Below, one piece after another: positions 5,942 through 64,000 of a stretch of 64,000 nucleotides of DNA; positions within the stretch are counted from its first letter, which is position 1, and each line of letters starts with the position of its first letter. The translations under genes and the position numbers were made by a program. The notes beneath the pieces are model-generated. The model saw only the letters and a program-made list of their open reading frames with translations. It did not search any database and was not told where the DNA came from. This DNA is from Bacteroidota bacterium (lineage in GTDB: Bacteria > Bacteroidota > Bacteroidia > Bacteroidales > FEN-979), in assembly GCA_037137455.1 (NCBI GenBank), contig JBAXKG010000007.1, positions 12,036 to 76,035 on the forward strand, written 5' to 3'.

Positions 5942-5953
5942 CTTTCGTTCCGG

Positions 5954-48262: not shown

Positions 48263-48290
48263 GCGTCATCGAAATAATTTTCAATGACGC
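48263..48290 (-). terminator. weak candidate rho-independent terminator after the small membrane-protein gene
   Basis: A 7-bp stem (GCGTCAT...ATGACGC) with a 14-nt loop, followed on the minus strand by TTCGTTTTAT. The large loop and poor U-tract make this uncertain. Confidence 0.25.
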
Positions 48291-48353
48291 ATCGAATTTT
48301 TATTGTTTCTCAGAACTCAATTCCTTTCCTTAAGAGGAATGAAGAGTTACCTG

Positions 48354-48914: not shown

Positions 48915-48939
48915 GAATATGTTGTATTTAGAATGATAC

Positions 48940-48947
48940 AAAAATAA
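48940..48947 (-). promoter_or_regulatory. candidate -7 box (TATTTTTG on the minus strand)
   Basis: A TAnnTTTG match 25 nt upstream of the ATG at 48914. Confidence 0.35.
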
Positions 48948-48990
48948 TAAATCATTTTAATAATCGCTAAGCCAAATGAAAAATAGTTTC

Positions 48991-48998
48991 TATTTTTG
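48991..48998 (+). promoter_or_regulatory. candidate -7 box (TATTTTTG)
   Basis: A TAnnTTTG match 29 nt upstream of the amidohydrolase ATG at 49028. It forms a divergent promoter pair with the box at 48940-48947. Confidence 0.35.
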
Positions 48999-49027
48999 GT
49001 GAACAATCATTAAACCAATATCTTAAA

Positions 49028-50686
49028 ATGAATTATAAAGGTATAATTTTCTCTCTTTTCGTAGTCTGTTTTTTAAATTCGTGCGGACAAATGAAAAAAA
49101 AAGTTGATTTAATTGTCACGAATGGCGTGATTTACACTGTTGATTCCGTTAATACCCGGGTGGAGGCCATGGCGATCAGCAACGGCAAGATTATGGCTCT
49201 TGGTAGCAACCAGAATATTGCAGCTGGTTATCAGGCTGATGAGACTCTCGATTTGAAAGGGAAGGCGGTTTTTCCGGGGTTTATTGATGCACATTGCCAT
49301 TTCATAGGTTATGCATTGGGATTACAATATGTTGACCTTGCCGGTTTGGGTTCGTTCGATGAAGTATTACTACGCCTTAAAGATGCAGACAAGCCAGGTA
49401 AGGGAAAATGGCTTGTAGGCCGGGGGTGGGACCAGAATTTATGGATAAGCAAAATCTTCCCTGACAACAGAAAGTTAAATGAATTATTTCCGGATATCCC
49501 GGTAATGTTAATCAGGATTGATGGCCATGTTGTTCTCGCGAATCAGGAAGCTTTGAAGAGGGCAGGCATTAATGAAAATAATCGTTTCAGGGATGGGCAA
49601 GTTGAGATGAAAAACGGACAATTGACCGGAATATTAAGTGAAAACGCGGCAGACCTGATAAGAGGAATAGTGCCACAACCTCAGGGCGAAGATCTGGCTA
49701 CCTTAATAAAACGGGCTGAGCAGCAATGTTTTTCAGTAGGCCTTACTGTTGTGAGTGATGCAGGGCTTGAGTACCCTCAGATTATTATTTTGGATTCGCT
49801 TCAAAAGAGCGGTAGAATCAAGATGCATGTTTATGCCATGTTGACCCCAACGGAAGAGAATATTAATGAATTTGTCAAACATGGACCATATAAAACTGAC
49901 AAACTGCTTATTAGATCGATAAAGATTTATGCAGATGGAAGTCTGGGAAGCAGGACAGCGAGATTAAAACAACCCTATAGCGATGCCAGGGCTACCTCAG
50001 GGATTAGCGTAACATTGCCTGATTCAATTAAATTTTTATGCAGTCTCGCTCTTGAGAATGGATACCAGGTAAACAGTCATTGTATAGGAGATTCAGCAAA
50101 CAGGCTGATATTGGACATATACAGAAGTTTTTTAAAGGAGAAGAATGATCTGCGTTGGAGAATAGAACATGCCCAGGTTGTTGATCAGAATGATTTTCAT
50201 CTCTTTGGCGATTATTCAATAATCCCTTCTATTCAGGCCACGCATGCCACTTCTGATATGAGGTGGGCGGAGGAGAGGGTTGGACCTTTGCGAATTCAGG
50301 GAGCCTATGCCTATAAAGAGCTGATGAACCAGAACGGATGGATAGCCAATGGTACAGATTTCCCGATTGAAAATATTTCTCCGTTATTAACATTTTATGC
50401 CTCGGTTGCAAGAAAAGATATGACCGGGTTTCCTGAAGGTGGTTTTCAGATGAAGAATGCACTTACACGTGAGGAGGCTTTACATTCCATAACCATTTGG
50501 GCGGCAAGAGCAGATTTTCTTGAAGGGGAAAAAGGCAGCCTTGAAGTTGGCAAGGATGCAGATTTTGTTATTCTCAATCAGGATATTATGGGGATTCCTG
50601 AGCAGGAGATTTCCAAAACCAGGGTTTTAAATACTTTCATCCGGGGAATGAGTGTTTTCTCAATCGTTTCGCAACCTACAATTTAA
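49028..50686 (+). CDS. metal-dependent amidohydrolase (Amidohydro_3 / YtcJ-like), secreted or lipoprotein
   Basis: Signal peptide with Cys (LNSCG). VFPGFIDAHCHF is the HxH metal motif. IYADGSLGS, NSHCIGD and GTDFP are further amidohydrolase-superfamily motifs. Confidence 0.85.
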   Translation: MNYKGIIFSLFVVCFLNSCGQMKKKVDLIVTNGVIYTVDSVNTRVEAMAISNGKIMALGSNQNIAAGYQADETLDLKGKAVFPGFIDAHCHFIGYALGLQYVDLAGLGSFDEVLLRLKDADKPGKGKWLVGRGWDQNLWISKIFPDNRKLNELFPDIPVMLIRIDGHVVLANQEALKRAGINENNRFRDGQVEMKNGQLTGILSENAADLIRGIVPQPQGEDLATLIKRAEQQCFSVGLTVVSDAGLEYPQIIILDSLQKSGRIKMHVYAMLTPTEENINEFVKHGPYKTDKLLIRSIKIYADGSLGSRTARLKQPYSDARATSGISVTLPDSIKFLCSLALENGYQVNSHCIGDSANRLILDIYRSFLKEKNDLRWRIEHAQVVDQNDFHLFGDYSIIPSIQATHATSDMRWAEERVGPLRIQGAYAYKELMNQNGWIANGTDFPIENISPLLTFYASVARKDMTGFPEGGFQMKNALTREEALHSITIWAARADFLEGEKGSLEVGKDADFVILNQDIMGIPEQEISKTRVLNTFIRGMSVFSIVSQPTI

Positions 50687-51320
50687 GCTGTTTGCAAATA
50701 AGTTTACCAGCCTGTTTGCCTGCATTTGCAAAGCATTCCGAAATCCTGAGCATTGCATCATAGGAGGCCTTATCTACTGAAACACCACCTACAGAAGTTT
50801 TCCAGGTTGCTTTGGGTTTTATTCTATCACCCTCAATTGTGGCAATTACTTTGTCGGGAGCAGCTGTTTCAACCAGGTCGATCAGCAAGTCAAGGGATGC
50901 CGATTTTGCAGTTCCCATTACAGCCGTTTCAACACCCTGTTCAACAAAGGTCACATGTAAAACAAGTGTATACTTAGCAGCAGGGTCAGATTTTCCTGTG
51001 AGTCCGCAATCATTAGCCTGATCGTTAAAGTCAGCCTCAAATGCCGGCTGGCATTTTTCAGCTTTCCCGGCATTCCATTTAGCGGCCCATTCATCACCAG
51101 TTCCGGGTTTTTTAGCATTCCTTTCATCGATACCTTTTTTCAGGTATGCAGCTTCAGAATCAAATTTGCCAACAGCCATCTTGTTGTAATCGTAGGTGAC
51201 GTTGATCACCTTTTCACCTTTAAGCACATTCAGATCTCCTGATTTAAGTTTCTGGCCAAACAAAACTCCGGTTGATGCCAAAAAGGCCAATGTTAATGCT
51301 ATTATTCCTATCTTTTTCAT
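50676..51320 (-). CDS. secreted hypothetical protein
   Basis: Clear signal peptide (MKKIGIIALTLAFLASTGVLFGQ). I recognised no motif. It overlaps the amidohydrolase 3' end by 11 nt (convergent). It appears somewhat more GC-rich than its neighbours. Confidence 0.6.
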   Translation of the reverse strand: MKKIGIIALTLAFLASTGVLFGQKLKSGDLNVLKGEKVINVTYDYNKMAVGKFDSEAAYLKKGIDERNAKKPGTGDEWAAKWNAGKAEKCQPAFEADFNDQANDCGLTGKSDPAAKYTLVLHVTFVEQGVETAVMGTAKSASLDLLIDLVETAAPDKVIATIEGDRIKPKATWKTSVGGVSVDKASYDAMLRISECFANAGKQAGKLICKQLKL

Positions 51321-51406
51321 GAAAATTGAATTTATAATTATGACTAATTGATTATTTAGACAAAATTAAAATAATGAAAGGAGAATACAAAATTTTCAAG
51401 AGAAAT

Positions 51407-52717
51407 TTACATTTTTTCGCGATGATCAATGAATTTGACAGGTTTTCGGCTGGTTTCAGGGTATTGCATTTTCTGAATACTAGCTTCATCGGTGAAGCTG
51501 ATTAATGGTGCAACCCTGAGTTTAGAGCGGAAATGGTCTTTGATATCTTTTTCTTTTTCTTCTCCGATACCTTTTCCACTTACGTAAATCATGATTTCAT
51601 CTGTTCCTATCTGATTTGTATAAACTTCAACGATATAATTAGTTATATAGTCAATGTTATCGAGGATATCGTACAGAGCAGGAGGGAAAAGGGTAGTACC
51701 TTTGTATTTGATCATCTGGTTTTTCCGGCCAACGACAGGACCAAGACGGATTGTATTGCGTCCGCATTTGCATGGACTCGAATAATGATGGCATACATCA
51801 CCAGTTTTAAAGCGAAGTAGCGGCATACCTTCAACACCGAGGGTAGTGATAGTGACTTCCCCGGGTTCACCTTCTTTTACAGGATTATTGTCATCATCAA
51901 GAAATTCAACTATAATTAATTCAGGATGATGATGCCCTCCAATACCTTCTTCACATTCGGTAAAGGAGGTTCCCATCTCAGTAGAAGCATAGGTTGAAAA
52001 CAATTTCAGCGGCCATTTTTCCAGAATTTTTCGTCCAAGAGTATTCAATGTGAGATCATTTTTTCTCAAAGGTTCTCCGATACAAATGGCCTTTTTAATG
52101 CTACATGTCTGGAAATCAATTCCATGTTGCTCAGCATATTCAATGATTTTAAGTATGAAAGATGGCACGGCAACAATGGCATTGGGTTTTATTCGTTGAA
52201 TCGTATCCCATTGCAGCTCAGGTATACCATTTCCAACGCGGACGATGCTTGCTCCCAACATCCGGATGCCAAGAAAGTATGCCAAACCAGCCATAAACCG
52301 CCGGTCGATGGTAGTCATCAGTTGATAAATATCGGTTGGCGCTCCCCGGGCACAGGTGAAAGAGATGGCTTCATTGTATGCCAGCCTGTCCAGATCACTG
52401 TTAGTCATGGCAAAGGTAACCGGATCGCCGAGGGTTCCGGAAGTAGTGATATAATCAATAATTTGTGATTTAGGAGTGCATAAAAAATCAAAATTTCTTA
52501 CCTGGAGATCCTTTTTTGTTGTAACGGGAATATGAACTAAATCAAGGGTTTCCTTGATTCGGGTAATATCAATATTGTGTATTCGGAAATGATCCTGATA
52601 AAAGGGAGATTGGTTCTTAAGATAAACCAGCGCCTTTTGGAGTAGGGAATTCTGAAATTTTAATATCTCAGGCAGAGCAGCGCTTTCAATTGCAGGTAAA
52701 AAAGGTAGTCCGGTCAT
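51407..52717 (-). CDS. PaaK / coenzyme F390 synthetase-family adenylate-forming acyl/aryl-acid ligase
   Basis: YITTSGTLGDPVTFAMTNSDL (P-loop-like motif of the PaaK family), STYASTEMG, LRFKTGD and GRKNQMIKYKGTTLFP. 436 aa is the typical size. Confidence 0.8.
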   Translation of the reverse strand: MTGLPFLPAIESAALPEILKFQNSLLQKALVYLKNQSPFYQDHFRIHNIDITRIKETLDLVHIPVTTKKDLQVRNFDFLCTPKSQIIDYITTSGTLGDPVTFAMTNSDLDRLAYNEAISFTCARGAPTDIYQLMTTIDRRFMAGLAYFLGIRMLGASIVRVGNGIPELQWDTIQRIKPNAIVAVPSFILKIIEYAEQHGIDFQTCSIKKAICIGEPLRKNDLTLNTLGRKILEKWPLKLFSTYASTEMGTSFTECEEGIGGHHHPELIIVEFLDDDNNPVKEGEPGEVTITTLGVEGMPLLRFKTGDVCHHYSSPCKCGRNTIRLGPVVGRKNQMIKYKGTTLFPPALYDILDNIDYITNYIVEVYTNQIGTDEIMIYVSGKGIGEEKEKDIKDHFRSKLRVAPLISFTDEASIQKMQYPETSRKPVKFIDHREKM

Positions 52718-52779
52718 TCTTGGTTTTTAGCTATTTATCGAAAATTTATGTGAAAATCATAATAAGAATTTATTTTCCA

Positions 52780-53862
52780 TCAGCGATAACCATATCGTTC
52801 CATATGAACCTTAAGCCGATACTTAATGATAAGGTTTTCTTCTTCTGTCAGGCTAAATCCATTTTTTTTAAAAGTTTGAATTTTATAAAAGAAATTAAGG
52901 ATATTTATTTCAAATTCAGGTAAAAACTGAAGTCCAAGTTTTGCGTAGAGTGTTTGTAAAACCGGGACAGGATTTTTTTCCAGTTCATCGAAACGGATTT
53001 CAGCCCAGGAATCCGAAGGAAGAATCTGTAAATCTTTATTGATAGTAGTCAGCACACTGTCGATGACAGTCAATACTTCATCTATTGTTGGAATGTGAGC
53101 ATTTGAATTCAGGCAATTTTGTTTCTGAACGATGTCCCACATATGAATGGTAGATGGTACCACATCGTAAGGGTGTCTGTGGATGTGAATAAATTTAGCT
53201 TTAGGAAATAATTGATATAAAAGTTGAATGCGATATGAATTGAAAGGATTTTTCGAAACAATTTTTCTTTTTCCTTTCAGACGTAATTTTTTATAGAAAT
53301 GTTGAATTTTTCTTTGCCAGTTTTCGAGTTTATCATCAGGTGGGATGAAGTTATCGGATTGCAGCAGAAAATAGGCTTTTGATTTTGGAAATACCAGATC
53401 TTCCAGAGGTGAAATCCCGGTAGTACGGTAGATGGCATATTCGTCTTCCTGAGGCTCATCCATGCCTATTTTGACTTGATCCATTGGCCTGTGTTCGGAG
53501 ATTATCCGTTTAAAAATCGGACGATAATATGGATAGGAGACAAGGAAACTATCGGGTAAAGCAACCTGAAAAAGCGTGGGGGCAATTAATTGAGGATCAA
53601 GACACATGAGTTGATGCAACAAAGTGGAACCAGTTCTCCAATGTCCGATTATGAATATTGGGTCATCAGGAACAGGTTCATTTTTCAAGGCTTTTGTGAA
53701 TTTTGCTTTTTCAATCAATGAAAAAAAGGAAGACCAGAAAGAGCTTTGAAAAAGAAAGGCAAGTCGCAGAATGTTTTTCCAGGTATATGATAATTTGTTC
53801 CGCTTTAAAAGCCGAAACAATTGATCAAGTTTGATTCCGGCAGTAATATAGGAATCTTTCAA
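52780..53862 (-). CDS. PAPS-dependent sulfotransferase family protein
   Basis: IIGHWRTGSTLLHQLM is a 5'-PSB loop and FIHIHRHPYDVVPS is a 3'-PB-like motif. TTG start. Confidence 0.75.
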   Translation of the reverse strand: MKDSYITAGIKLDQLFRLLKRNKLSYTWKNILRLAFLFQSSFWSSFFSLIEKAKFTKALKNEPVPDDPIFIIGHWRTGSTLLHQLMCLDPQLIAPTLFQVALPDSFLVSYPYYRPIFKRIISEHRPMDQVKIGMDEPQEDEYAIYRTTGISPLEDLVFPKSKAYFLLQSDNFIPPDDKLENWQRKIQHFYKKLRLKGKRKIVSKNPFNSYRIQLLYQLFPKAKFIHIHRHPYDVVPSTIHMWDIVQKQNCLNSNAHIPTIDEVLTVIDSVLTTINKDLQILPSDSWAEIRFDELEKNPVPVLQTLYAKLGLQFLPEFEINILNFFYKIQTFKKNGFSLTEEENLIIKYRLKVHMERYGYR

Positions 53863-53888
53863 AACAATGGCATTTAAATAAAGTTATT

Positions 53889-54173
53889 TTACAATTTATT
53901 ATTTGATTTTTGTTCTGAAATGAACTTTGCGATACTATTTACAGAGCGAACTACTTCTCTGGCCAGGTTCTGATCGGCAATACGTATGCCGTAGTTACGT
54001 TGGATTGCCATAATGATCTCAATAGCATCAACAGAATCGAGAGTGAGGGCATTATCTCCTCCAAAAAGTGGTTTTTCATCATCCACATCATTCGGGTCGA
54101 CATCATTGATTGACAAAGTGGTCATTATCATTTTCTTGATTTCCAGTTTCAGTTCTTCTGATTGTGTAGACAT
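53889..54173 (-). CDS. acyl carrier protein (stand-alone)
   Basis: 94 aa and acidic. LTLDSVDAIEIIMAI contains the DSxD/phosphopantetheine Ser context. Confidence 0.85.
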   Translation of the reverse strand: MSTQSEELKLEIKKMIMTTLSINDVDPNDVDDEKPLFGGDNALTLDSVDAIEIIMAIQRNYGIRIADQNLAREVVRSVNSIAKFISEQKSNNKL

Positions 54174-54194
54174 ATTTGAATACTTTATTTCCGT

Positions 54195-55202
54195 TTATTT
54201 AATGGCTTTGGAAAGTGTCTTAAAAAATCGTTCTTCCACATCAGCCCTGTCATAGATCATCTCACTCAATTGTTTCAATTTTTCAGGGCCAAGGTCTCTG
54301 TTTTTGCCTATACGTGCAGAGAACAGGGAGATTTCCCTCCATCCATCCCCGATATTCATGAGTTCACCAGAAAGTTCTTTCAATCCAGGTTTATTGATTA
54401 TCGCGGCAGCCTGCTGAAGGAAGGTGGCATAGATGAAACGAAATCCGGCCCCACCGGTTCCCTGGTCTTCAAGCAGAATGTTAATTTTCATGATTTCATG
54501 CGACAAATGTTCGATATCTCTCGCAAACTTTGGCCATTCAACGACTTTTTTGGCAAACATCCGCATGCCTTTTATGCCAAGGAATGGAATCGGGATGTTT
54601 AACATGTAAAAGCAAGCTTTTTTAATGCCTTTTGTAATGGCTTTATTGTAATCAATTTCAACGGGGAGTTTATCCAAATGGAAAATAAATCCCTTAGGCG
54701 ACATGGTACCACCCGCGAATCGTCCCTTTTCAAGTGAAGCAGCGTCAAGTTCAACCATCTTCGGGAAATATGCATCGCTGATGGTGTACTTGCCATTTTC
54801 CTTGCCTGCAACTACCAAAAAATGAACATTGATATGAACACGTTCCCATGATGGAACGTAGTCCATATAGAAAAAATCAACCTGTGCGGCTGTGGGGAGA
54901 TTTTGCATCAGAAGATAATCGAGTGTTTGTTGCCCTTTGATATTATCATTAAAATCAAAGGTTTTGAACTTCACACCGATTCGCTTTTCAATGTTTGTAC
55001 GCATATGTCCCGGCTTATTCCTAACTATGAAGGTAGGGAATGCAAAGGATTTCATTTTGTGAAAATAACCGAAAAAGATTCCACTGGCGATGCCAAAAAC
55101 CAAGGGTTCAGTGATGTTGAGGCCCCCGTGATTCAACAAGGAGGTGATAGACCCCGATTCGCAGTGAGCGGCCATTTTATGGTTGAAGTTCTGTATGATC
55201 AT
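54195..55202 (-). CDS. BtrH N-terminal-domain/DUF4872-like protein (putative ACP-dependent acyltransferase or papain-fold peptidase)
   Basis: The N-terminus NFNHKMAAHCESGSITSLLNHGGLNITEPLVFGIASGIFFGY matches my memory of the BtrH_N pattern, with a candidate nucleophile Cys. The ~335-aa length fits BtrH_N plus DUF4872. Confidence 0.6.
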   Translation of the reverse strand: MIIQNFNHKMAAHCESGSITSLLNHGGLNITEPLVFGIASGIFFGYFHKMKSFAFPTFIVRNKPGHMRTNIEKRIGVKFKTFDFNDNIKGQQTLDYLLMQNLPTAAQVDFFYMDYVPSWERVHINVHFLVVAGKENGKYTISDAYFPKMVELDAASLEKGRFAGGTMSPKGFIFHLDKLPVEIDYNKAITKGIKKACFYMLNIPIPFLGIKGMRMFAKKVVEWPKFARDIEHLSHEIMKINILLEDQGTGGAGFRFIYATFLQQAAAIINKPGLKELSGELMNIGDGWREISLFSARIGKNRDLGPEKLKQLSEMIYDRADVEERFFKTLSKAIK

Positions 55203-55709
55203 CTATTTTCTTTCTTCAATTTTAGTCAGTACAATGTAAGGGTTGTGGGTTGATGTATGATCGACAGAAATTTTTTCAGCTTTATTTTCAAGTATAAGAT
55301 TGGATTCGAAACTACCATTGCTATTCACCAAAACAATCTGTAAAAGGTTGGCCACGTGAATATTAAATACCGATGCATATTTAACAAGTTCATCAGCTGT
55401 CACCAAACCAAACAGTTTAGGATCAAGATGTTTCTTTACCCGTGATTTCCTGACTCCTGCCCTCGCCGATAATTCGGAGAGAGAGAGGTCTTCAAAGACC
55501 ATATAATATTTTATCGGGCTTATTTTGCCTGAGATCAATTGCTCCCGAAGTTCCAACTCCAGGTTCCTGCGTTTGGCTATGTAATCATCCATATAATTTG
55601 CCGAGATATAAGAACCTGTCTGCATAGGGCCATATTTCCCATCATCCTTTTCTACATAAAGGATCATCTGTTGTTCAGGATAATCCACAAAACCTTCTTT
55701 TTCTTTCAT
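55203..55709 (-). CDS. hypothetical 168-aa protein with possible HTH-like segment
   Basis: LSLSELSARAGVRKSRVKKHLDP resembles a helix-turn-helix. I recognised no other motif. Its stop directly abuts the BtrH-like start. Confidence 0.45.
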   Translation of the reverse strand: MKEKEGFVDYPEQQMILYVEKDDGKYGPMQTGSYISANYMDDYIAKRRNLELELREQLISGKISPIKYYMVFEDLSLSELSARAGVRKSRVKKHLDPKLFGLVTADELVKYASVFNIHVANLLQIVLVNSNGSFESNLILENKAEKISVDHTSTHNPYIVLTKIEERK

Positions 55710-55732
55710 TGGATGAAATTAGGAATTTCCTC

Positions 55733-56962
55733 CTATTTCTGTCTTGCAAAAATAGCAATGCTGCTGATCATTGCAAAACCAAAAAAAAGGATCATTAAAA
55801 TTGTATTTGGAAGTATATCAAGGAGATTTCCTTCGCGTATAAACAGGTTCAGGTAATTATCAATCCCCCAGCGGATAGGAGAGAGGCAGCTAATATACTG
55901 AATAACTTCCGGCATAAGGTGAATTGGCAGGAATGTTCCGCTGATCACACCGAGCAAAACCACCATTACGGATCCAAACAAAGCGGCCTGGTTATGTGTT
56001 GTAGCTGTTGCACCTACAATAATCCCGAAACCAATGGCAGCAAGGGAGGCTGAAATTGTAGCAATAGCAATAGCCGGATATTGATGACCAATTTGAAGTT
56101 GAGGGAAACCGAAAAAGGCAGGAAATATCCAGATTCCGATTGCCAGCATAAGGATAAATTGAAGTAGGCATACAGCCAGGTAAGCGATTACTTTTCCTCC
56201 AAGAATTGAAGACAATCTTACCGGGAGCGAACGCAGCCGTTGAAAACTTCCTTCATTTTTTTCTGTAATCAGGCTGCCAGCCAGGGGAATAACAATAAAA
56301 AACATAGCAAAAAGGATAAATCCCGGAACGTTGTTTTGAATCACATTTGGCTGAATGGCTGATTTCTCCTTCAGTGCATATGTTTCCTTTATCGGAGACA
56401 GATCATGCATTATTTCTGACACCTGTGCCTGAATTACAGGCTTCATAGTCACCGGGAGCCTGCCCAGTATATCATTCATTGCCTCTCCTGTCTGTGTCCC
56501 CTTGATGATATATTTGAGCGAATTTGTGACCGGAGTTTTAAAGGTTTCCTGCAGGGTCGGGTCAATAATCAGGATAATTGCAGAATCGACAGGCTTAATG
56601 ATAACTCCAAATTTGAAATCACCCTTTCCAATCAGTGTTTTAGCTTTGAAGTAATTCACAGGAATCTTGTCAATTTCGGTCACAGGATGAAAGAAACCTG
56701 ATGAATCGAAATTTGCCATAAGCCTGGCGGAAAAAGGGCTATTCGACTCATCGACAAAAAGGATCTGAGTTTTGGCATTCTGACTTTTCAAGGCATTTTC
56801 CTGTGCCAGGGTTACCACGAAAATCAGCAGGACAGGCATCAGGAAAAGGATGATTAATCCGGGGATGTCTCTGAAGAGCAACAAGAATTCCTTATTTAAG
56901 ATAAACCACAGTTTTCGCACAGAGCAAAAATAGGAAGATTTATCAATTCTTTTTTGCTTCAA
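55733..56962 (-). CDS. ABC-2-type transporter permease
   Basis: An N-terminal TM helix, a large extracytoplasmic loop and 5 C-terminal TM helices, which is ABC-2 topology. TTG start with a 20-nt overlap on the methyltransferase gene. No ATPase gene is adjacent. Confidence 0.7.
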   Translation of the reverse strand: MKQKRIDKSSYFCSVRKLWFILNKEFLLLFRDIPGLIILFLMPVLLIFVVTLAQENALKSQNAKTQILFVDESNSPFSARLMANFDSSGFFHPVTEIDKIPVNYFKAKTLIGKGDFKFGVIIKPVDSAIILIIDPTLQETFKTPVTNSLKYIIKGTQTGEAMNDILGRLPVTMKPVIQAQVSEIMHDLSPIKETYALKEKSAIQPNVIQNNVPGFILFAMFFIVIPLAGSLITEKNEGSFQRLRSLPVRLSSILGGKVIAYLAVCLLQFILMLAIGIWIFPAFFGFPQLQIGHQYPAIAIATISASLAAIGFGIIVGATATTHNQAALFGSVMVVLLGVISGTFLPIHLMPEVIQYISCLSPIRWGIDNYLNLFIREGNLLDILPNTILMILFFGFAMISSIAIFARQK

Positions 56963-58043
56963 TCAGGCTGACCGGTGCGATGGTAGGAATTATCCGTGAA
57001 AGAGAGAATCCTGATTTTTCCAATAAAGTCCGGTATTCGCTGCCTGTGCGTTCTTTACCTCCCGGCATGGTGGCCATCATCTGAATATCCAACAATTTAG
57101 CCAGTGATGGTCCATTCCCTGATGGAACCACCATTTCTATGATAAGCAGGAGTCCATTTGGTTTAATAACCTGATGAATTTTTTGTAACAATTTAACCGC
57201 CTGTTCATCACTCCAGTTATGGATAATATTTTTGAGTATATAAAGATCGCCAGAAGCGGGGATTGAATTAAAAAAATCACCTGAAACGATTTCTGTACGG
57301 CTTTCGACCTTATGCATGGCAAACATTTCAGAGGCCTTTTCGAGCGCTACATTCGTATCAAAAAGGATGCCCCGGCACCCGGCATTTTCGCGAAGTATAT
57401 TGGCCAGGAGAAATCCTTCGCCGCCACCTAAATCAATAATCAAAGGAAATTTTGAGAATTCATATGCATTAAGAATCGGGGCAAGTCCCAATTCTGAAAG
57501 ATTTGACATCGATTTGTCAAATAAAGCATTTTCATCTTGATGATCCTTAAGAAAATCCCAAATTTCCTTTCCATATTTATCAGTAAAGGCATTCTTTCCT
57601 GTTCGAACCGAAACTTCAAGATTGCTCATCAGATTCCAATTGATTGGTCCCAGATGATGGAGGATCATATAGCGCAGTGAGCCTGGTTCATCGAGGAGGC
57701 CTTTGGCCATTGAATTTATCGCGAAACGCCCATCGCGGGTCTGTTTAAAAATACCCTGGCTGGATAGTGCTCGAAGGATCCGTGATACGTTAAGTGGGTC
57801 AACATCAAGACGTTCAGCGATTTCAGTGACAGTAAGCGGATTATCCTTAAGAAGTTTGGCTATATCGAGTTTTGCTGCAACGTAAATCGAGGGTAACAAC
57901 CAGAAATTTTGAAACTGTTCGTAAAGTACTACATTGCCGGGGAACAGTTTTCGGTTCAGATGTATTAAGAAAGTGCGAAAAGCTGTAATGACTTTGATAA
58001 GCCATACCGGAGGAAGTTTCTGATGGGATTGGTATTTACTCAT
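56943..58043 (-). CDS. SAM-dependent O-methyltransferase (COMT/Methyltransf_2-like, with N-terminal winged-helix dimerisation domain)
   Basis: LTVTEIAERLDVDPLNVSRILRALSSQGIF is the winged helix. IIDLGGGEGFLLANIL is motif I. DLYILKNIIHNWSDE is the characteristic OMT motif. The ATG at 58043 is preferred over the TTG at 58082. Confidence 0.8.
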   Translation of the reverse strand: MSKYQSHQKLPPVWLIKVITAFRTFLIHLNRKLFPGNVVLYEQFQNFWLLPSIYVAAKLDIAKLLKDNPLTVTEIAERLDVDPLNVSRILRALSSQGIFKQTRDGRFAINSMAKGLLDEPGSLRYMILHHLGPINWNLMSNLEVSVRTGKNAFTDKYGKEIWDFLKDHQDENALFDKSMSNLSELGLAPILNAYEFSKFPLIIDLGGGEGFLLANILRENAGCRGILFDTNVALEKASEMFAMHKVESRTEIVSGDFFNSIPASGDLYILKNIIHNWSDEQAVKLLQKIHQVIKPNGLLLIIEMVVPSGNGPSLAKLLDIQMMATMPGGKERTGSEYRTLLEKSGFSLSRIIPTIAPVSLIEAKKN

Positions 58044-58101
58044 GGCTATTACCTCTTGCAGTTTGGCAAAACCTGATCGCAAATTTACACTGATTTTAAT
58101 A

Positions 58102-59895
58102 TCAGGCTTTGTGAACCGGGAGGTTCTTCAGCTGAAGCTCAAATTTCTCAAGGTCTGAGATTAGTTTGGCTTTTTTATCACGGAGATTTACCTTCACATT
58201 TGAAAAAAGCTGTTTATAATATTGAATTCCTTTTTCAAGGTTATCACTGAATGTGGTGAAGTACTCCTGTTGTTTTTCCGACCAGGGACGGGCAGTCTGG
58301 TCCATTTTGCTTTTCAGGTAATCGATGTAAATTATCAATTCTTTCATGAACAGGTTTGGCCGGTCTTTTCGTTTGATTACGTTAATTTTGCCGTAGATAT
58401 GATCAACCATCTCCTTTAGTGTCATCACATCTGAAAAATAGGCCATATTAGGTCCCGGGCAAACAGAAACACCAGCTTTTTCTTTTTTAATATCAAGGTT
58501 GTTTACAAGAAGGGCAGAAGTTCCAAGGCCAACACAGATACAGGCTTTATCAACAATTTTATTGAATTCATCCTGAAATTCGACTTTGCCAAGACCCTTT
58601 GATTCCAATTCCCCAATTTTCAGCTTCTGATATTTTCTTGAAGCTATGCAAAGCATTGGTTCTCCAAACTCATTACTGAGTGCTGCATACTTTTTCGGAC
58701 AGGGATTACCAGGTGTATTGTTTTCAATGTATTCTTCCTTTTCGAGGTCTTTCGTGTTGCCCCTCAGGTTATTGAATGGAACGCCTAATGGGCTGATATC
58801 GCTTACAAACAGGTCGTCTTCTTTGGCATTACACAATAGGTCAAGTGTTTTCTCATCTACATTGACCACTTCGGGAACCAGCAGGAATGGTGTTCCCCAG
58901 CCAACAGAGTCAAGGTTGTAATGCTCAGATAGAAACTGATGCTCCTCTGCTGTTCCAACGCCGCCCTGGGCTGTAATTTTTATATCAAAAGGTTCAGCGG
59001 GGCAAGGACGATTTTTCGATTTGAGGGCCACCTTCAGTAATTCGAATGTTTGTTTTATCAGATCTTCGCGGTTGCGATTGATCTCTTCAAGTACCGGACC
59101 AAGCAGGTAACCGGTTGTAGGGAAGGCATGGCCCCCGCAGTTCAACCCTGATTCAATACGATATTCAGAAACCCATAATCCCTTTTTGGCCAAGTACTTA
59201 CCTTGGATCAGCGCAGACCTGTAATCACTCACCTTGAGGGTGATTTTCTTTTTCAAATTGAAATCTTTGTCAGGAAAGAATTCATCGAAGGTCTCAATAT
59301 AGTTATATAAACGTGGGCTCATCCCAGCTGACAACACGACTGAAGAAGAGAGGTCGCTGTTGACAAATCCTCGCAAAGCAGCGTGTCCATCATTGAATTC
59401 GACAGGAAGCTTTTCATGGTTGCGGTAATTTTCCTTATCCACCTTGGTCATGATGTTCACATCAATGCTTCCCATTGAGAGGTTTTCCTGGATCCATTCA
59501 CGAACATCCAGGTCATTCCAGTTCTGTTTCAGTTGTTCAAACTTCTGTTTCAGTTGCGATGAATCCTGCAGCATCTCAATATATTTTGAGAATTCACTGC
59601 TTTTTTGTTCGAAGGATGTCTTTAGTTCTTCAAATTTTTCTTTTGCAATTTTGTCAACAAGGTTCAGGTATGCGGTAATCCTTTTCGCCCTGAAGTCTTC
59701 AATTTTATCGGAAATGCCCTGGAATGGCAGGTCAAATTTATGACTGTAAAATTCGCGTAGTTTTTCCATCAGCATATCATCGAGCAATGAAATCACTGAT
59801 GAAATACCAAGATGGGCCACCTTCACCGGAGTGTCGATGGAATATCCAATGCCCAATACAGGGATATGGAAAGAATGCGGGGTTATTTTATTCAT
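58102..59895 (-). CDS. 597-aa protein of unknown function, possibly an FMN-dependent TIM-barrel (nitronate monooxygenase/enoyl-reductase-like) enzyme with large insertions
   Basis: ESGLNCGGHAF, AQGGVGTAEEHQFL and GWGTPFLLVPE resemble the GGH, GGI and GT.F motifs of NPD-like barrels. The N-terminus HIPVLGIGYSIDTPVKVAHLGISSVISL is unfamiliar. Confidence 0.35.
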   Translation of the reverse strand: MNKITPHSFHIPVLGIGYSIDTPVKVAHLGISSVISLLDDMLMEKLREFYSHKFDLPFQGISDKIEDFRAKRITAYLNLVDKIAKEKFEELKTSFEQKSSEFSKYIEMLQDSSQLKQKFEQLKQNWNDLDVREWIQENLSMGSIDVNIMTKVDKENYRNHEKLPVEFNDGHAALRGFVNSDLSSSVVLSAGMSPRLYNYIETFDEFFPDKDFNLKKKITLKVSDYRSALIQGKYLAKKGLWVSEYRIESGLNCGGHAFPTTGYLLGPVLEEINRNREDLIKQTFELLKVALKSKNRPCPAEPFDIKITAQGGVGTAEEHQFLSEHYNLDSVGWGTPFLLVPEVVNVDEKTLDLLCNAKEDDLFVSDISPLGVPFNNLRGNTKDLEKEEYIENNTPGNPCPKKYAALSNEFGEPMLCIASRKYQKLKIGELESKGLGKVEFQDEFNKIVDKACICVGLGTSALLVNNLDIKKEKAGVSVCPGPNMAYFSDVMTLKEMVDHIYGKINVIKRKDRPNLFMKELIIYIDYLKSKMDQTARPWSEKQQEYFTTFSDNLEKGIQYYKQLFSNVKVNLRDKKAKLISDLEKFELQLKNLPVHKA

Positions 59896-59934
59896 TTAGA
59901 TAGATAAAGATATTGCAAAGGTACAACATTTTAC

Positions 59935-62322
59935 CTAGAATTGAATCCTCCAGGTTCCCATTGGGAAAAAGGCCATGGTGAAAAAATCCCTGATCTCTCC
60001 TGTTTTGGGGTCGATTCGCTGGACGGAAATATTAGTAAAACTTGTACGATATTGCAGATCAACAAAAAATTCGATATTGTAACCTGGCAGGTTTCTCCTG
60101 ATCCCAAAACGGAAAGCGAAACGTTTATATTCGGGAAAGCGTTGGCTGTATGCCTGTGACCATTCATACACAGGCTCTCCGGAGGCTACGGTTGCTGTTA
60201 CATCAAATGGAATGTAAGGGCTTCCTCCGTTCCACGTGGCCTTTATCCCAAATGACATTACCCCCCATTTGCGTTTTCCCATGATAAATTCGTACCCACC
60301 TGCAGCATTCAAGGCATAATTCACATTAAAGGCCGAATTGCGCGCAATGTCATCGTACCCGTTGTATTTGGAATTAAAAACAGAAGCTGAGAGCAGGAAA
60401 TAATAGTTTTTTCTGAAAAAACGTTCAAAGGTGCATTCAAGGCCATAGTTCTGTCCGGTTCCTTTATTAACAAGACTATCGGCATACTGTCGATCGATGA
60501 AAAACTCATGGCCCTGGTTGCTAAGCGAGTACTGAGGGATGGAGGCTTTGACCGGTATATCGAACAGATACTGGTAATATATCTCGGTTTTGAACCTAAG
60601 GTCTTTGTTCAGAAGGTAATTATATCCAAACGCTATCTGTGCGCTTCGGGTGAACCCAAGGTCAAGGTTTGGCTGAATGGCCTTTCCGCAGGGCAGATGT
60701 GACAGGATGAAATAGATCACCCTGGGTTGCATCTGACTGTAAAGGCCTGTTCCAAAATTGATCGAATGTTGTTTGCTGATGTTCCAGTCAAAGCCGATCC
60801 GTGGTTCTAATGACCAGGAATTGTTTAGTGATAGCCATGATCCGTAAAGACCCTGTGTTGAGGAGAATTTTTCACTAAAAATGTGTTGCCATTGTGTGAA
60901 TCCACGCATCATTTGCATGTTTTCCTTTGAACCGGTATTCGCAATGAAAGCTCCTTTGGAAATTATGCTGTCGGCGAATGACATCTGGAAAAAATCCCAG
61001 TAAATGCCTCCATTCAGAGAATTTTTCGAGGAAAATTTTTTTGTCAGTACTGAAGAAAAGGAGTATTTGATTTCAGTTGATCGCTCGCCGGCCCAGGGTG
61101 ATGGTAATTGTTGAATATTGTTAAATGTGTCGATTTTTGTTCTGGTATCTGAAGCTACCAGATAAATAATGTTTTTCCACATCAAGCTCTTTGCGAGAAA
61201 AATCTGGTGTGAAATGCCCAAAACTCCAAGGTTTGAACCATTTGACAGGTCCTCGCCATAATCGGGGAATAGCCATTTCGATTGTTCCTTCCGGCTGTCA
61301 AAAAGTTCAATAAAACTGAGTCCGCCTATGGCCGTGATGGTGAAATTGCCTGCTTTCCGGGTGGGGATATTTATTTTGATGTTCAGGTCCTGGTATTTTG
61401 GCACGATACCGATATTGATATTAAACAGGTTGAGAAATTGCAGTGGTGAATAACGATAGGAGACAAGAAAGGAGGCCCGGCTATTTTTTGAGAATGGGCC
61501 TTCAGCGCCGAATTCCAGTCCATTCCATCCAATTTCGAACCAATATTCATGTTTTTCCGCGTTTCCATTTCGCATTTTCAAGTCAAATATTCCCGCGAGA
61601 GTGTTGCCATATTGAGCAGGGAAAGCGCCGGTGAAAAAATCGGAATTTGTAACGAGGTTGTTATTCAGGACTGTTACCGGTCCACCTGTTGTTCCTACTG
61701 CCGCAAAATGGTTCGGGTTAGGAATTTCCATGTCGTCGATGCGCCATTGCAGGCCGGTAGGCGAGTTGCCACGCACGATGATATCATTCCGGTTGTCGAT
61801 GCCACTGGTGACGCCTGCGAAGTTGGCAACCATTCGTGCCGGGTCATTGTAGCTCCCTGCAAACCTGAAGGTTTCATCAACACTGAAAGATCGTACACTC
61901 ACCGTTGCCATTTTGTTGATGGCTTCATTTTTCCGGTAACCAGCCCTGATTTCGACTTCGGGAGCATTCAATGTGGTTTCTTCCAAAAATATAGTGGTCA
62001 TGGTTTCTTTACCACTGGTCACAATAAGCGGTTCTGTGATAAAAGGGGCATATCCCATGAAGGTAACCCGGAGTTGATATTGGCCGATTTTAACATGAGT
62101 AAGCTTAAAGCGCCCCAGGGTGTCGGTAACTGCCCCAACCAACGAGTTTGTATCAAGAATGGTAACTGTTGCACCCGATAGTGGTGACTGGGTTTGATTA
62201 TCGAGGACAATGCCCTGAATGCCCGATTTGAGAATCGTTTGTGCAATTCCGGGATGGCCAGGCAGGAAAAATATAAACAGTAAAAAAAATAAGAAATTTT
62301 TCCGGGAGAAGTTGAGAAACAT
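59935..62322 (-). CDS. TonB-dependent receptor with N-terminal carboxypeptidase-regulatory-like domain
   Basis: Signal peptide, then GIVLDNQTQSPLSGATVTILDT...GRFKLTHVKIGQYQLRVTFMGY (CarboxypepD_reg), then a plug (IIVRGNSPTGLQWRIDDMEIPNPNHF), then a beta-barrel ending in an aromatic residue (WRIQF). Confidence 0.85.
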   Translation of the reverse strand: MFLNFSRKNFLFFLLFIFFLPGHPGIAQTILKSGIQGIVLDNQTQSPLSGATVTILDTNSLVGAVTDTLGRFKLTHVKIGQYQLRVTFMGYAPFITEPLIVTSGKETMTTIFLEETTLNAPEVEIRAGYRKNEAINKMATVSVRSFSVDETFRFAGSYNDPARMVANFAGVTSGIDNRNDIIVRGNSPTGLQWRIDDMEIPNPNHFAAVGTTGGPVTVLNNNLVTNSDFFTGAFPAQYGNTLAGIFDLKMRNGNAEKHEYWFEIGWNGLEFGAEGPFSKNSRASFLVSYRYSPLQFLNLFNINIGIVPKYQDLNIKINIPTRKAGNFTITAIGGLSFIELFDSRKEQSKWLFPDYGEDLSNGSNLGVLGISHQIFLAKSLMWKNIIYLVASDTRTKIDTFNNIQQLPSPWAGERSTEIKYSFSSVLTKKFSSKNSLNGGIYWDFFQMSFADSIISKGAFIANTGSKENMQMMRGFTQWQHIFSEKFSSTQGLYGSWLSLNNSWSLEPRIGFDWNISKQHSINFGTGLYSQMQPRVIYFILSHLPCGKAIQPNLDLGFTRSAQIAFGYNYLLNKDLRFKTEIYYQYLFDIPVKASIPQYSLSNQGHEFFIDRQYADSLVNKGTGQNYGLECTFERFFRKNYYFLLSASVFNSKYNGYDDIARNSAFNVNYALNAAGGYEFIMGKRKWGVMSFGIKATWNGGSPYIPFDVTATVASGEPVYEWSQAYSQRFPEYKRFAFRFGIRRNLPGYNIEFFVDLQYRTSFTNISVQRIDPKTGEIRDFFTMAFFPMGTWRIQF

Positions 62323-62342
62323 GAGGTAAATATAGGGAGAAT

Positions 62343-62729
62343 TTACGCTTCCATCATTTCTTCAACCTGTTCAAGGGTAAGGCGCGACCATTTGGGGTTT
62401 ACAAGATTTTTATCCTTCACCTCAAAAGTAACAAGGTCGAAGGTCTCCTCGTAAAAGGTAAGTTTGCTATGCAGGTCAGGAGTATGTTCAATGAAGATAA
62501 AGTTTTCCGGGGTACAATGTAATTTATTCATTATTTGTGTTGCGAGCTGGGCACACCATTCAGTAACCGGCGTTCCGGGGTTTTGACGGTAGATTTCGGT
62601 TGCAATTGCCAATGTTTTGTTATCTTTCCGATTGATGATCTTTAATCCGCATTTAGATGGACTTTCCCATTGTCCTGAATAGTTGAAGTAGTGGTCCATG
62701 TATTTGTCGAAGTCGGGATTGGTCTCCAT
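62343..62729 (-). CDS. hypothetical 128-aa cytoplasmic protein
   Basis: An intact ORF with an ATG start and no signal peptide. I recognised no motif. It is wedged between the radical SAM and receptor genes. Confidence 0.5.
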   Translation of the reverse strand: METNPDFDKYMDHYFNYSGQWESPSKCGLKIINRKDNKTLAIATEIYRQNPGTPVTEWCAQLATQIMNKLHCTPENFIFIEHTPDLHSKLTFYEETFDLVTFEVKDKNLVNPKWSRLTLEQVEEMMEA

Positions 62730-62741
62730 TTATAGATTCTG

Positions 62742-62770
62742 AATGAGTGATTGAGTGAATGAGTGATTGA
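62742..62770 (-). repeat. tandem 8-nt repeat (plus strand A[AT]TGAGTG, about 3.6 copies; minus strand CACTCA[AT]T) in the spacer upstream of the 128-aa ORF
   Basis: Read directly: aatgagtg attgagtg aatgagtg attga. It fills most of the 47-nt gap between the radical SAM stop (62777) and the ATG at 62729. Confidence 0.8.
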
Positions 62771-62776
62771 TATTTT

Positions 62777-64000
62777 CTATGCGACTTTTGGGACTTTTTT
62801 TCCAAAGCTGAGATCGGCGATGTCGCGGCGGCGCGGGGAGTAGGTACCATCTTCAATTTCGCGTGAAACGACTTTGTTTATAAGGTTGAACATCTTCATA
62901 GTCTGGGGTTCATCCTTGTAAAATGTATCCCAGGCATACTGATAGAGTTCTGCCAATCTTTCAGCCGACATATGTTTGGGGTGGTAAACAACTTTCCCGG
63001 CATTGTAATGGTTCCAGTCGGTATCGAATATACGACCCTGTTTCAACAGGTCGCTGTAGGCTTTCGTATGGGGAAATGGAGCAAGAACAGTGAATTCGGC
63101 AAGATCAAGCTCAATTTCGAGCAGAAAGTCAACCAAACGCTTGATATCATCTTCAGTTTGGTTGTCGAGGCCCAAAAGGATCGTGCCTTCAACTGCAATG
63201 CCATATTCATGGTACTGCTTAATTCGATTTTTTATATAATCGGATGTATCGAACACAGCCTGATAAACATACCATGCTCCGGCCTGGGCTGCCAGATCTA
63301 ATACTTCATCTTTATCTTCGATAGTGTGGCTAACCCACTTTTTCTTTAAGGGGATCATAGCTTTGAAAAGATCTTTTTCCCATTGGGTATCGAGGGCAAG
63401 GGAATTATCGACAATGAAAAGGCGGTTGTTGTCCATTTGTGACAGTTCCTCAACAACGCGATCGATGGGGCGGGGCCGGAATCCACGGCCACCAAGGTAA
63501 CGTACGGCACAGGGATAGCAATCATAAATGCAGCCACGGGAAGCATGGAAGAGGTCGACCATTCGAAATCCCTTGTGGTAGTATAAATCTTTTTTCAGTA
63601 TATCTCGTTTTGCCGGGCCAATAAGTCCCATATCGGGTGGCTTGCTAATGAAGTTGTAGATCTTTTTCAGGTCATTTTTTTGAAAATCCTGAAAAAGTTG
63701 ACCAAGGCGACCTTCCACTTCGCCAAGAAATACAGAATCGGCATGTAACATGGTTTCTTCGGCATGCAACATTGTTGAAATTCCACCGAAAATGACTTTT
63801 TTCCCAAGCCTACGGTACTGGTCGGCAATTTCCCATCCCCGTTTGACCTGGGTGGTCAGCATCATCGAAATACCAACAAAGTCAGGGCTTTCATCAATTA
63901 TCAGTTCCTCCACATTTTCATCGGTAAAGTCGATATCGATATTTTGAGGAATGTCGGCGGCCATAACCACCGGACCGTGGGGTGGCAGGTTAAAAATGGT
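62777..64000 (-). CDS. B12-binding-domain radical SAM enzyme (5' end outside the window)
   Basis: PDFVGISMMLTTQ...KVIFGGI is the cobalamin-binding Rossmann-like domain. ASRGCIYDCYPCAV is the CX3CX2C radical SAM cluster. The frame stays open to the window edge (...TIFNLPPHGPVVMAAD...), so the track start at 63970 is internal. Confidence 0.85.
   Translation of the reverse strand, partial: TIFNLPPHGPVVMAADIPQNIDIDFTDENVEELIIDESPDFVGISMMLTTQVKRGWEIADQYRRLGKKVIFGGISTMLHAEETMLHADSVFLGEVEGRLGQLFQDFQKNDLKKIYNFISKPPDMGLIGPAKRDILKKDLYYHKGFRMVDLFHASRGCIYDCYPCAVRYLGGRGFRPRPIDRVVEELSQMDNNRLFIVDNSLALDTQWEKDLFKAMIPLKKKWVSHTIEDKDEVLDLAAQAGAWYVYQAVFDTSDYIKNRIKQYHEYGIAVEGTILLGLDNQTEDDIKRLVDFLLEIELDLAEFTVLAPFPHTKAYSDLLKQGRIFDTDWNHYNAGKVVYHPKHMSAERLAELYQYAWDTFYKDEPQTMKMFNLINKVVSREIEDGTYSPRRRDIADLSFGKKVPKVA

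Follow-up and report, generated by a model that had tools for sequence, protein, structure and literature searches.

Positions 51407-64000 of a 64,000-nucleotide stretch of DNA from a Bacteroidota bacterium (assembly GCA_037137455.1, contig JBAXKG010000007.1, positions 12,036 to 76,035; the whole stretch is called the window here) are filled by 11 open reading frames (ORFs) on the minus strand, as found by ORF calling on the 64-kb window. They encode, among others, an aryl-acid ligase, an acyl carrier protein (ACP), an acyltransferase, a sulfotransferase and a radical S-adenosylmethionine (SAM) enzyme, and we read them as part of a larger lipid cluster, probably a variant of those that produce flexirubins, aryl polyenes (APEs) and dialkylresorcinols. 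From the ligase gene towards the window edge, the spacings between the 11 ORFs are 62, 26, 21, 0, 23, -20, 19, 39, 20 and 47 nt. A preliminary description of this DNA had reported 11 co-directional and tightly packed genes, which is what the ORFs and their spacings of -20 to 62 nt bear out. All nine of the motifs it quoted (9/9) were found in the translations, and nearly all of its domain calls were upheld by Pfam, namely those for the ligase, sulfotransferase, ACP, BtrH-like protein, permease, methyltransferase and radical SAM enzyme. Its count of eleven included a 168-aa and a 128-aa gene that it left without description.

Protein families were assigned with Pfam and NCBIfam profiles, and the FlxY and DarH memberships are based on NCBIfam equivalog cut-offs. 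Individual loci or contigs compared with the window carry L-numbers, of which L001/L086 is a sister strain and L087 a close relative.

Acyl activation and acyl transfer genes

The gene at the downstream end of the row (51407..52717, minus strand, as are all of the window genes described below) encodes a FlxY-type aryl-acid ligase with the PaaK fold. The protein scores 702 bits against the FlxY equivalog NF053551 (cut-off 520), with residues 11-433 aligned to positions 2-424 of the 424 in the model, and it also matches Pfam AMP-binding (1.2e-12). In Chitinophaga pinensis, FlxY has been characterised as the 4-coumarate-CoA ligase by which the flexirubin polyene is primed (PMC3992019). The gene at 54195..55202 encodes DarH, a BtrH-related acyltransferase of dialkylresorcinol/flexirubin clusters, which matches the DarH_acyl equivalog NF053550 over its full length (319.9 bits, cut-off 300) and contains the Pfam domains BtrH_N (2.2e-34) and DUF4872 (1.5e-41). 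Its cysteine motif, AHCE[ST]G, is present in 16/16 related loci checked. These two proteins had previously been called PaaK-type and BtrH_N-like, respectively, and both calls were borne out and sharpened to the FlxY and DarH equivalogs.

Two further genes flank darH. Directly upstream, at 55203..55709, lies a gene for a 168-aa protein that we call DarG-like on the basis of sub-cut-off NCBIfam DarG matches and its position. Its stop codon abuts the DarH start codon with a 0-nt gap, a junction that mirrors the darG-darH adjacency in C. pinensis (PMC3992019). On the other side, 21 nt downstream of the DarH stop, begins the gene for a dedicated ACP (53889..54173; Pfam PP-binding 4.9e-6), whose serine motif LDS[VI]DA is conserved in the related loci that cover this gene.

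The gene row continues beyond the window

The frame of the ORF at 62777-64000 (minus strand) stays open to base 64000, the last of the window. Full-length copies of the gene, which encodes 423 aa, are present in the sister contig L001/L086 (GCA_964523065.1), which matches the window at 99.855 % identity along 15,899 nt; base 64000 of the window corresponds to L086 position 17137, and the ORF in the window is a 5'-truncated copy. In addition, the 597-aa protein encoded in the window and the exporter-fusion protein described next are both recorded on one contig, probably the window's own.

Upstream of the radical SAM gene, L086 carries genes for a C45 acyltransferase, a reductase dependent on flavin adenine dinucleotide (FAD), a 1298-aa fusion of an MMPL exporter, a PlsC-type acyltransferase and a methyltransferase, and a family 2 glycosyltransferase (GT2)/DUF2062 protein. 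Two radical SAM genes of the vitamin B12-binding (B12) type follow on the opposite strand, one of which scores 313.8 bits on TIGR04072 (cut-off 360). Beyond these lie genes for a FabD-like malonyl transferase, an ACP and a FabF-type ketosynthase (PRK07314 458.5 bits, cut-off 387), and then a haem-binding-domain protein, a 3-hydroxyacyl-CoA dehydrogenase (3HCDH), a fourth B12-type radical SAM enzyme and the end of a gene resembling that of beta-ketoacyl-ACP synthase III (KAS III). The ketosynthase lies 12.5-13.8 kb past the window edge and FabD 11.3-12.2 kb past it. The start of the row is visible in L087, where a hotdog protein, a 4HBT thioesterase, two crotonases and the KAS III-like gene are encoded; the radical SAM enzyme adjoining the KAS III-like gene there is 89 % identical to its L086 counterpart. 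The whole cluster is about 33 kb long with about 29 genes, and the 11 genes, together with a 214-aa gene that follows them, are its distal part.

Conservation in related genomes

We scanned one genome per species with the outer-membrane barrel protein encoded at 59935..62322, which yielded 80 loci. About 16 species-level loci from metagenome-assembled genomes (L004-L017, L020), labelled Bacteroidota, Bacteroidales, Prolixibacteraceae or Draconibacterium, share the gene order from the radical SAM gene to FlxY as far as their contigs reach, and the FlxY equivalog is kept in nearly all loci that cover its position. Co-conservation across genomes, which the preliminary description had proposed as a check, is thus found: the block is syntenic in about 16 species-level genomes, and the catalytic motifs are conserved there, although a few loci lack an individual motif. 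The upstream half, from the hotdog protein to the exporter fusion, recurs in over 25 metagenome contigs, and in some of these a FabF-like pair stands in front. Barrel homologues of 45 % identity or less sit in other contexts, except that in L019 (41 %). This locus keeps the DarG-like protein, DarH, the ACP, the sulfotransferase, the radical SAM enzyme, the 128-aa protein, the barrel and a gene like that for the 214-aa protein, and its neighbours encode an LpxL-like acyltransferase, an O-methyltransferase, a flavodoxin and an FAD oxidase.

Two further distant loci are L168 and L169, in which the radical SAM orthologue is 75 % identical and the module (DarG-like protein, DarH at 330 bits against 300, ACP, sulfotransferase, radical SAM enzyme and a 125-aa protein) stands back to back with a divergent operon. 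That operon encodes the FlxA tyrosine ammonia-lyase (846 bits, cut-off 700), FlxB (407, cut-off 340), a ketosynthase, an ACP, an LpxL-like acyltransferase, a TIGR04072 radical SAM enzyme (428, cut-off 360) and an ApeP-like dehydratase. These clusters also hold orthologues of the window's barrel (49 %) and 214-aa protein (38 %); two proteins from upstream of the window, the second ACP and a radical SAM enzyme, have orthologues there at 70 % and 66 % identity, respectively.

These observations change the earlier picture of the locus in three respects. The preliminary description had seen no ketosynthase, and a FabF-type ketosynthase and a KAS III-like gene stand in the same row beyond the edge in the strain that is 99.86 % identical. 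It had also seen no flexirubin or aryl-polyene hallmarks, and there are FlxY and DarH equivalogs in the window, flxW/V/U/T-like genes upstream of it and FlxA/FlxB beside the module elsewhere. Finally, it had placed the cluster outside the usual Bacteroidota classes, which the two equivalogs and the flx-like gene order past the edge contradict. Ketosynthase and hallmarks appeared to be absent because the row runs off the window edge and because these families are not recognisable by eye; claims of this kind should be checked wherever a row of genes extends past the end of a sequence window.

Tailoring and envelope genes of the module

The sulfotransferase gene (52780..53862) encodes a protein of the type that uses 3'-phosphoadenosine 5'-phosphosulfate (PAPS), with a hydrophobic N-terminal extension and a Sulfotransfer_3 match of 1.9e-29. 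Its 5'-phosphosulfate-binding (5'-PSB) motif, GHWRTGSTLL (G[HN]WRTG[ST]T in relatives), is kept in every relative that covers the gene, and its 3'-phosphate-binding (3'-PB) motif, RHPYDVVPS (RHP...S), is present in 11/14 loci. A sulfated product is possible. At 56943..58082 lies the gene for a small-molecule O-methyltransferase with an N-terminal dimerisation/winged-helix domain (Methyltransf_2 1.5e-47, Dimerisation 1.4e-10). It is syntenic in the relatives, where the D[IL]GGGEG motif is conserved, and it reaches only 24.5 bits on the FlxJ-family methyltransferase model.

The radical SAM enzyme with a B12-binding domain, whose gene loses its 5' end at the window edge (62777..64000; full 423 aa at L086 17089-18360), matches the Pfam families B12-binding (2.5e-10) and Radical_SAM (9e-7) and carries the CxxxCxxC cluster motif CIYDCYPC, conserved as C.Y.CYPC in the related loci covering the gene. 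It is the best conserved protein of the block, being 86-96 % identical across relatives, compared to 45-88 % for its neighbours, and it belongs to a family of more than 6000 homologues, none of the best 120 falling below 73 % identity. In its AlphaFold model (predicted local distance difference test, pLDDT, 72.5) the best fold match is the radical SAM diol dehydratase AprD4 (6fd2; TMq 0.70, E 1.7e-14), followed by MgmA, MiaB, TsrM and CysS. Domains, motif and fold matches agree in placing the protein in the class B (B12-domain) type, as a putative cobalamin binder. AprD4 is not known to use cobalamin, MgmA, TsrM and CysS are B12-dependent methylases and MiaB is a methylthiotransferase; that AprD4 ranks ahead of the B12-dependent methylases hints at a chemistry other than methylation.

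Directly after the radical SAM gene comes that for the 128-aa protein (62343..62729), which has no Pfam or NCBIfam match. The two genes lie together in all related loci, even in the distant L019, L168 and L169. The family comprises about 381 representative clusters, mostly small stand-alone proteins with an invariant Cys27 and Trp114, and among the 381 representatives there was no Pfam domain and no informative fusion partner. We considered whether the protein might be a relative of the DarG-like protein and rejected this, the two being unrelated on comparison.

The third member of this group of genes encodes a 795-aa outer-membrane barrel protein that resembles TonB-dependent receptors (59935..62322), with a signal peptide, a C-terminal ...WRIQF and a CarboxypepD_reg domain (5.5e-15). 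The Pfam Plug domain scores 17.7 bits, below its threshold of 23.9. A family profile built from 20 homologues finds the N-terminal domain of a TonB-dependent receptor (6ytc) at 1.6e-9 and reaches the YncD and PqqU barrels only at E 0.03. The earlier call of a TonB receptor is weakened by the sub-threshold Plug, which leaves CarboxypepD_reg as the only domain above threshold, and by solved transporters being reached only at E 0.03. In L012 (9587-12352) the 128-aa and barrel genes form one uninterrupted 922-aa ORF, either a real fusion or an assembly error. Between the O-methyltransferase and the DarG-like gene lies that for an ABC-2 type permease (55733..56962; ABC2_membrane_3 4.5e-31), the counterpart of darJ.

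Comparison with characterised clusters

The flexirubin cluster flxA-flxY of C. pinensis comprises Cpin_1853-1877 and that of Flavobacterium johnsoniae Fjoh_1074-1110 (PMC3992019). In the former, flxT, flxU, flxV and flxW precede flxX-flxY, and in the latter Fjoh_1079, 1078, 1077, 1076 and 1075 follow one another in the corresponding order (PMC3992019 Tables S4/S5). The window-type cluster has in common with these the order GT2 (flxT), exporter/acyltransferase/methyltransferase fusion (flxU), FAD reductase (flxV), C45 (flxW) and flxY, as well as a type II ketosynthase, ACP, FabD and outer-membrane components. Where C. pinensis has only flxX, a holo-ACP synthase gene, the window strain has ten genes: those for the radical SAM enzyme, the 128-aa protein, the barrel, the 597-aa protein, the O-methyltransferase, the ABC-2 permease, the DarG-like protein, DarH, the ACP and the sulfotransferase. 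Relative to flexirubin clusters, the window type adds the sulfotransferase, four radical SAM enzymes with B12 domains, the 128-aa protein, crotonases and 3HCDH, whereas FlxA, FlxB, DarA, a true DarB, a halogenase, LolA and multiple ketosynthase/chain-length-factor pairs were not seen.

A second likeness is to the dar gene sets. In C. pinensis, darG/darH adjoin darB/darA, the ABC transporter genes darI/darJ and the ACP gene darC (PMC3992019 Table S4). The sets of C. pinensis and of Azoarcus BH72 (darD/darE; PMC3992019, PMC3949708) share with the window-type cluster DarH, a DarG-like protein encoded directly upstream, an ACP and an ABC-2 permease. The differences are that the window type is without DarA or an ABC ATPase, whereas darJ is paired with darI in the dar sets, that its KAS III-like protein fails the DarB and StlD profiles, and that its ACP gene is followed by an inserted sulfotransferase gene and radical SAM gene. 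No sulfotransferase or B12-type radical SAM gene is listed for the characterised flexirubin, dialkylresorcinol and xanthomonadin clusters (PMC3992019, PMC3949708), and our full-text literature searches found no description of a flexirubin, dialkylresorcinol or aryl-polyene variant with either. Homology to characterised clusters, which the preliminary description had named as something that would refute it, thus covers part of the genes; the sulfotransferase, radical SAM enzyme, 128-aa protein and barrel fall outside it. What is new is a conserved and uncharacterised sulfotransferase/radical SAM module in an otherwise flexirubin/aryl-polyene-related cluster.

The APE clusters of Proteobacteria, with E. 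coli as one example, use a type II system to which an adenylating enzyme supplies an aromatic acid as primer; the ACPs are dedicated ones, and acyltransferase, glycosyltransferase and MMPL exporter genes serve placement in the outer membrane. To our knowledge, genes for a BtrH-like protein, a sulfotransferase or a B12-type radical SAM enzyme are absent from these clusters. The window-type cluster resembles them in the predicted aromatic-acid priming of a type II system, the ACPs and the export genes, and its sister clusters L168/L169 in the ApeP-like dehydratase; it differs in the PaaK/FlxY fold of its ligase. With the butirosin pair BtrI/BtrH it shares the BtrH_N domain with its conserved cysteine and the ACP gene alongside, and this combination makes acyl transfer from the ACP to an acceptor the likely chemistry. 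No partners of the BtrJ, BtrK, BtrO, BtrV or BtrG kind, such as an ATP-grasp enzyme, decarboxylase or monooxygenase, and no aminoglycoside genes are found among the annotations of the ~29 cluster genes, and the acceptor of DarH is probably a hydroxyl on a lipid or phenol and not the amine of an aminoglycoside. Clusters with the TIGR04072 'lipid biosynthesis B12-binding/radical SAM' family, which we take to be the 'ladderane' class of genome-mining tools, likewise have a B12-type radical SAM gene near FabF, an ACP, an FAD desaturase-like gene, a GT2 and an MMPL/acyltransferase gene. They differ in that the window strain's copy falls slightly short of the cut-off (313.8 against 360) and in the presence of FlxY, DarH and the sulfotransferase. 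We know of no product for TIGR04072-type or window-type clusters outside anammox bacteria.

Proposed function and alternative readings

Taken together, these data suggest, with a probability that we put at roughly 75 %, that the 11 genes are the downstream third of a ~33-kb lipid cluster of the flexirubin/aryl-polyene/dialkylresorcinol type, in a variant carried by uncultured and possibly anaerobic Bacteroidales, and that the cluster would build its lipid by a type II fatty-acid/polyketide-like machinery. The preliminary description had proposed that a ligase activates an acid for the ACP, that the BtrH-like enzyme transfers it, and that methylation, sulfation and export follow, and this scheme agrees with the working model for flexirubin/aryl-polyene/dialkylresorcinol clusters. 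In the pathway that we envisage, the FlxY-type ligase would activate a 4-coumarate-like aromatic acid as the starter and hand it to CoA or an ACP. The FabF-type ketosynthase and the KAS III-like enzyme could then extend the chain with FabD, the second ACP, the 3-hydroxyacyl dehydrogenase and the hotdog/crotonase dehydratases. The four radical SAM enzymes with B12 domains would alter unactivated carbons, C-methylation being the default guess, and the one encoded in the window could instead carry out an AprD4-like dehydration. The O-methyltransferase and the PAPS sulfotransferase may decorate hydroxyl groups. DarH, with the DarG-like protein and an ACP of its own, would move an acyl group from the ACP to a hydroxyl acceptor by way of its conserved cysteine, the same acyl transfer that BtrH performs onto an amine in butirosin biosynthesis. 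Lastly, the exporter fusion, the GT2, the ABC-2 permease, the receptor-like barrel and the secreted 214-aa protein might deliver the lipid to the outer membrane.

Several observations weigh against this assignment. The genes past base 64000 were read from the 99.86 %-identical strain and not from the window itself, and the first five upstream genes are seen only in the relative L087. Homologues of FlxA, FlxB, ApeP-like and LpxL-like proteins were not found in the window, L086 or L087, in which all but about 8 kb of the sister contig could be read, and there is no DarA-like gene among the genes of L086 and L087. The 168-aa protein scores 60.7 bits on the DarG equivalog (cut-off 170) and 59.6 on the DarG family (cut-off 70). 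The KAS III-like protein scores 84.7 bits on DarB (cut-off 550) and 105.7 on the StlD/DarB family (cut-off 450), and we rejected its identity as DarB because it lies below both thresholds. An LSGGQ-type ABC ATPase signature, which a partner of the permease would carry, is found neither in the 64-kb window nor in L086 or L087. The nearest relatives have one FabF-type ketosynthase, and extra ketosynthase pairs occur only in more distant contigs. Finally, crotonase and 3HCDH genes are atypical of aryl-polyene clusters, which implies that the chain may not be a polyene.

This last point leads to the alternative that survives best, although we regard it as unlikely: the product would be a structural membrane or envelope lipid instead of a pigment, with an alkyl chain, possibly aryl-capped, that is remodelled by radical SAM enzymes, carries methyl and sulfate groups and is akin to the products of TIGR04072 'ladderane-type' clusters. 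The four B12-domain radical SAM enzymes speak for it, one of them scoring near the TIGR04072 cut-off and its L168 orthologue at 428, as do the crotonases, 3HCDH, hotdog protein and thioesterase that stand in place of polyene enzymes of the FlxB/ApeP type and the lack of a tyrosine ammonia-lyase gene in the ~47 kb visible; PlsC-type and GT2 genes would suggest attachment to a glycerolipid or glycolipid. Against these stand the retention of the FlxY equivalog in nearly all loci that cover its position and the FlxA and FlxB genes of the sister cluster type. Such a lipid would depart from the flexirubin/aryl-polyene assignment only in the nature of the chain.

A different role for the sulfotransferase is conceivable as well, in which the ACP, sulfotransferase and DarH work like the ACP-sulfotransferase-thioesterase unit of CurM and OLS: a beta-hydroxyl would be sulfated and the chain released by decarboxylation as a terminal alkene, leaving a product free of sulfate. 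The best matches of the sulfotransferase among PDB sequences are indeed CurM (4gbm, 6.7e-5) and OLS (4gox, 1.1e-4), its GHWRTGSTLL and RHPYDVVPS segments align in sequence with RSGSTLL and VRHPYSVIES of the CurM sulfotransferase domain (VRHPY.V..S in common), and its gene adjoins the ACP gene in every locus covering both. However, these matches are weak and lie mainly in generic PAPS-binding parts, and in a low-confidence alignment the CurM segment SPPELH, presumably the carrier of the catalytic Glu/His, pairs with APTLFQ. There is also no alpha/beta-hydrolase thioesterase beside the sulfotransferase, and the dar clusters of C. pinensis, F. johnsoniae and Azoarcus have DarH but no sulfotransferase (PMC3992019, PMC3949708). 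We consider this reading very improbable and rejected an activating sulfotransferase of the CurM type on the grounds that its catalytic segment is not conserved. A stable sulfate ester is more likely than sulfate-assisted olefin formation, because the Glu/His segment of CurM/OLS is not shared and only the PAPS motifs are.

The model of the preliminary description itself, a self-contained pathway without a ketosynthase that makes a small sulfated metabolite or cell-surface modification unrelated to flexirubins and aryl polyenes, fares slightly worse still. A tblastn search of the 64-kb window with one ketosynthase from a related cluster, the only scan for this gene made there, gave no homologue, and L019 carries the DarG-like/DarH/ACP/sulfotransferase/radical SAM/128-aa/barrel genes with no FlxY or C45 gene within 10 kb; both observations speak for such a pathway. 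The gene row nevertheless goes on beyond base 64000 with same-strand flxW/V/U/T-like genes and then, past two opposite-strand radical SAM genes, with the ketosynthase, FabD and ACP; the ligase and the transferase score as equivalogs of FlxY and DarH; in L168 and L169 the module has FlxA, FlxB and a ketosynthase as its neighbours; and the neighbours in L019 (LpxL-like acyltransferase, O-methyltransferase, FAD oxidase) are of the flexirubin-cluster type. We accordingly give this model very little credence. Readings as a cluster for a ribosomally synthesised and post-translationally modified peptide or for polysaccharide modification were rejected, no gene for a precursor peptide, a peptidase or a sugar-nucleotide enzyme being present.

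Returning to the flexirubin/aryl-polyene assignment, a wider proposal can be made, which we offer tentatively and at somewhat less than even odds. Bacteroidales and related Bacteroidota, as a widespread lineage of possible anaerobes, may run an undescribed version of the flexirubin/aryl-polyene pathway that yields sulfated outer-membrane aryl lipids remodelled by radical SAM enzymes. Its conserved module would consist of the DarG-like protein, DarH, the ACP, the sulfotransferase, the radical SAM enzyme, the 128-aa protein and the receptor-like barrel. Oxygen-independent B12-type radical SAM enzymes might here replace the oxygen-dependent or flavin tailoring of aerobes, and the 423-aa enzyme and its 128-aa partner might perform new chemistry on an ACP-bound or lipid substrate.

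Aryl-polyene/flexirubin clusters belong to the biosynthetic gene-cluster families that are most widespread in Gram-negative bacteria, and in the variant described here DarH and its ACP are linked with a sulfotransferase and with a radical SAM enzyme of high conservation. Should the product prove to be a sulfated aryl lipid, it would represent a new envelope-lipid class in sediment and freshwater Bacteroidales, and the cluster would be a source of new radical SAM chemistry.

Accessory genes and flanking regions

The 597-aa protein (58102..59895) is recognised by its homologues only and has no match in Pfam, NCBIfam or PDB sequences. Its family has at least 8000 homologues, of which the best 120 are 62-86 % identical and bear 'hypothetical protein' as their only source name. 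Invariant in it are the motifs ESGLNCGGHAF, AQGGVGT, CICVGLGT and CPGPN and six cysteines. The protein had been labelled TIM-barrel-like, a label that is less secure than it was made to be: PF03060 is unmatched, and with the AlphaFold model (pLDDT 64.6) Foldseek returned nothing below E 0.18, its top weak matches being mostly TIM barrels, which does not suffice for a fold call. Only the closest relatives have the gene within the cluster; its slot is filled by an LpxL-like acyltransferase gene in L009, L010 and L017, and in another genome (L167) the gene stands alone among housekeeping genes. It is probably a passenger or accessory gene.

Scans of positions 48000-64000 for sigma-70 promoters (42 matches, 38.4 expected) and for intrinsic terminators (18 matches, 14.5 expected) both stayed at the level of chance. 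In L087, two regulatory proteins are encoded at 2742-6501 (minus strand), divergent from the first cluster gene: a sigma-54 response regulator and a PAS histidine kinase that contains a receiver domain. A search for sigma-54 -24/-12 elements near the cluster start there was at chance level and gave no match in the 170-nt intergenic region.

Many relatives (L004 19468-20166, L006 19614-20333, L009 18428-19084 and others) have one more gene in the interval from the sulfotransferase to FlxY; its product, of about 230 aa, has a signal peptide, ends in ...IGLKF and looks like a small outer-membrane barrel. The window is without this gene and has only 62 nt between the sulfotransferase and FlxY genes.

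Downstream of the ligase gene, outside the segment covered by the preliminary description, lies the gene for the secreted 214-aa protein (50676..51320), which has a signal peptide without a lipobox cysteine and no family match. A homologue occupies the same position in L004, L008, L009, L010, L014, L017 and L019, L168 has a 38 % homologue, and the gene is the probable last gene of the cluster. Past it come a convergent amidohydrolase gene and then housekeeping genes, including those for MutL and rhomboid proteases.

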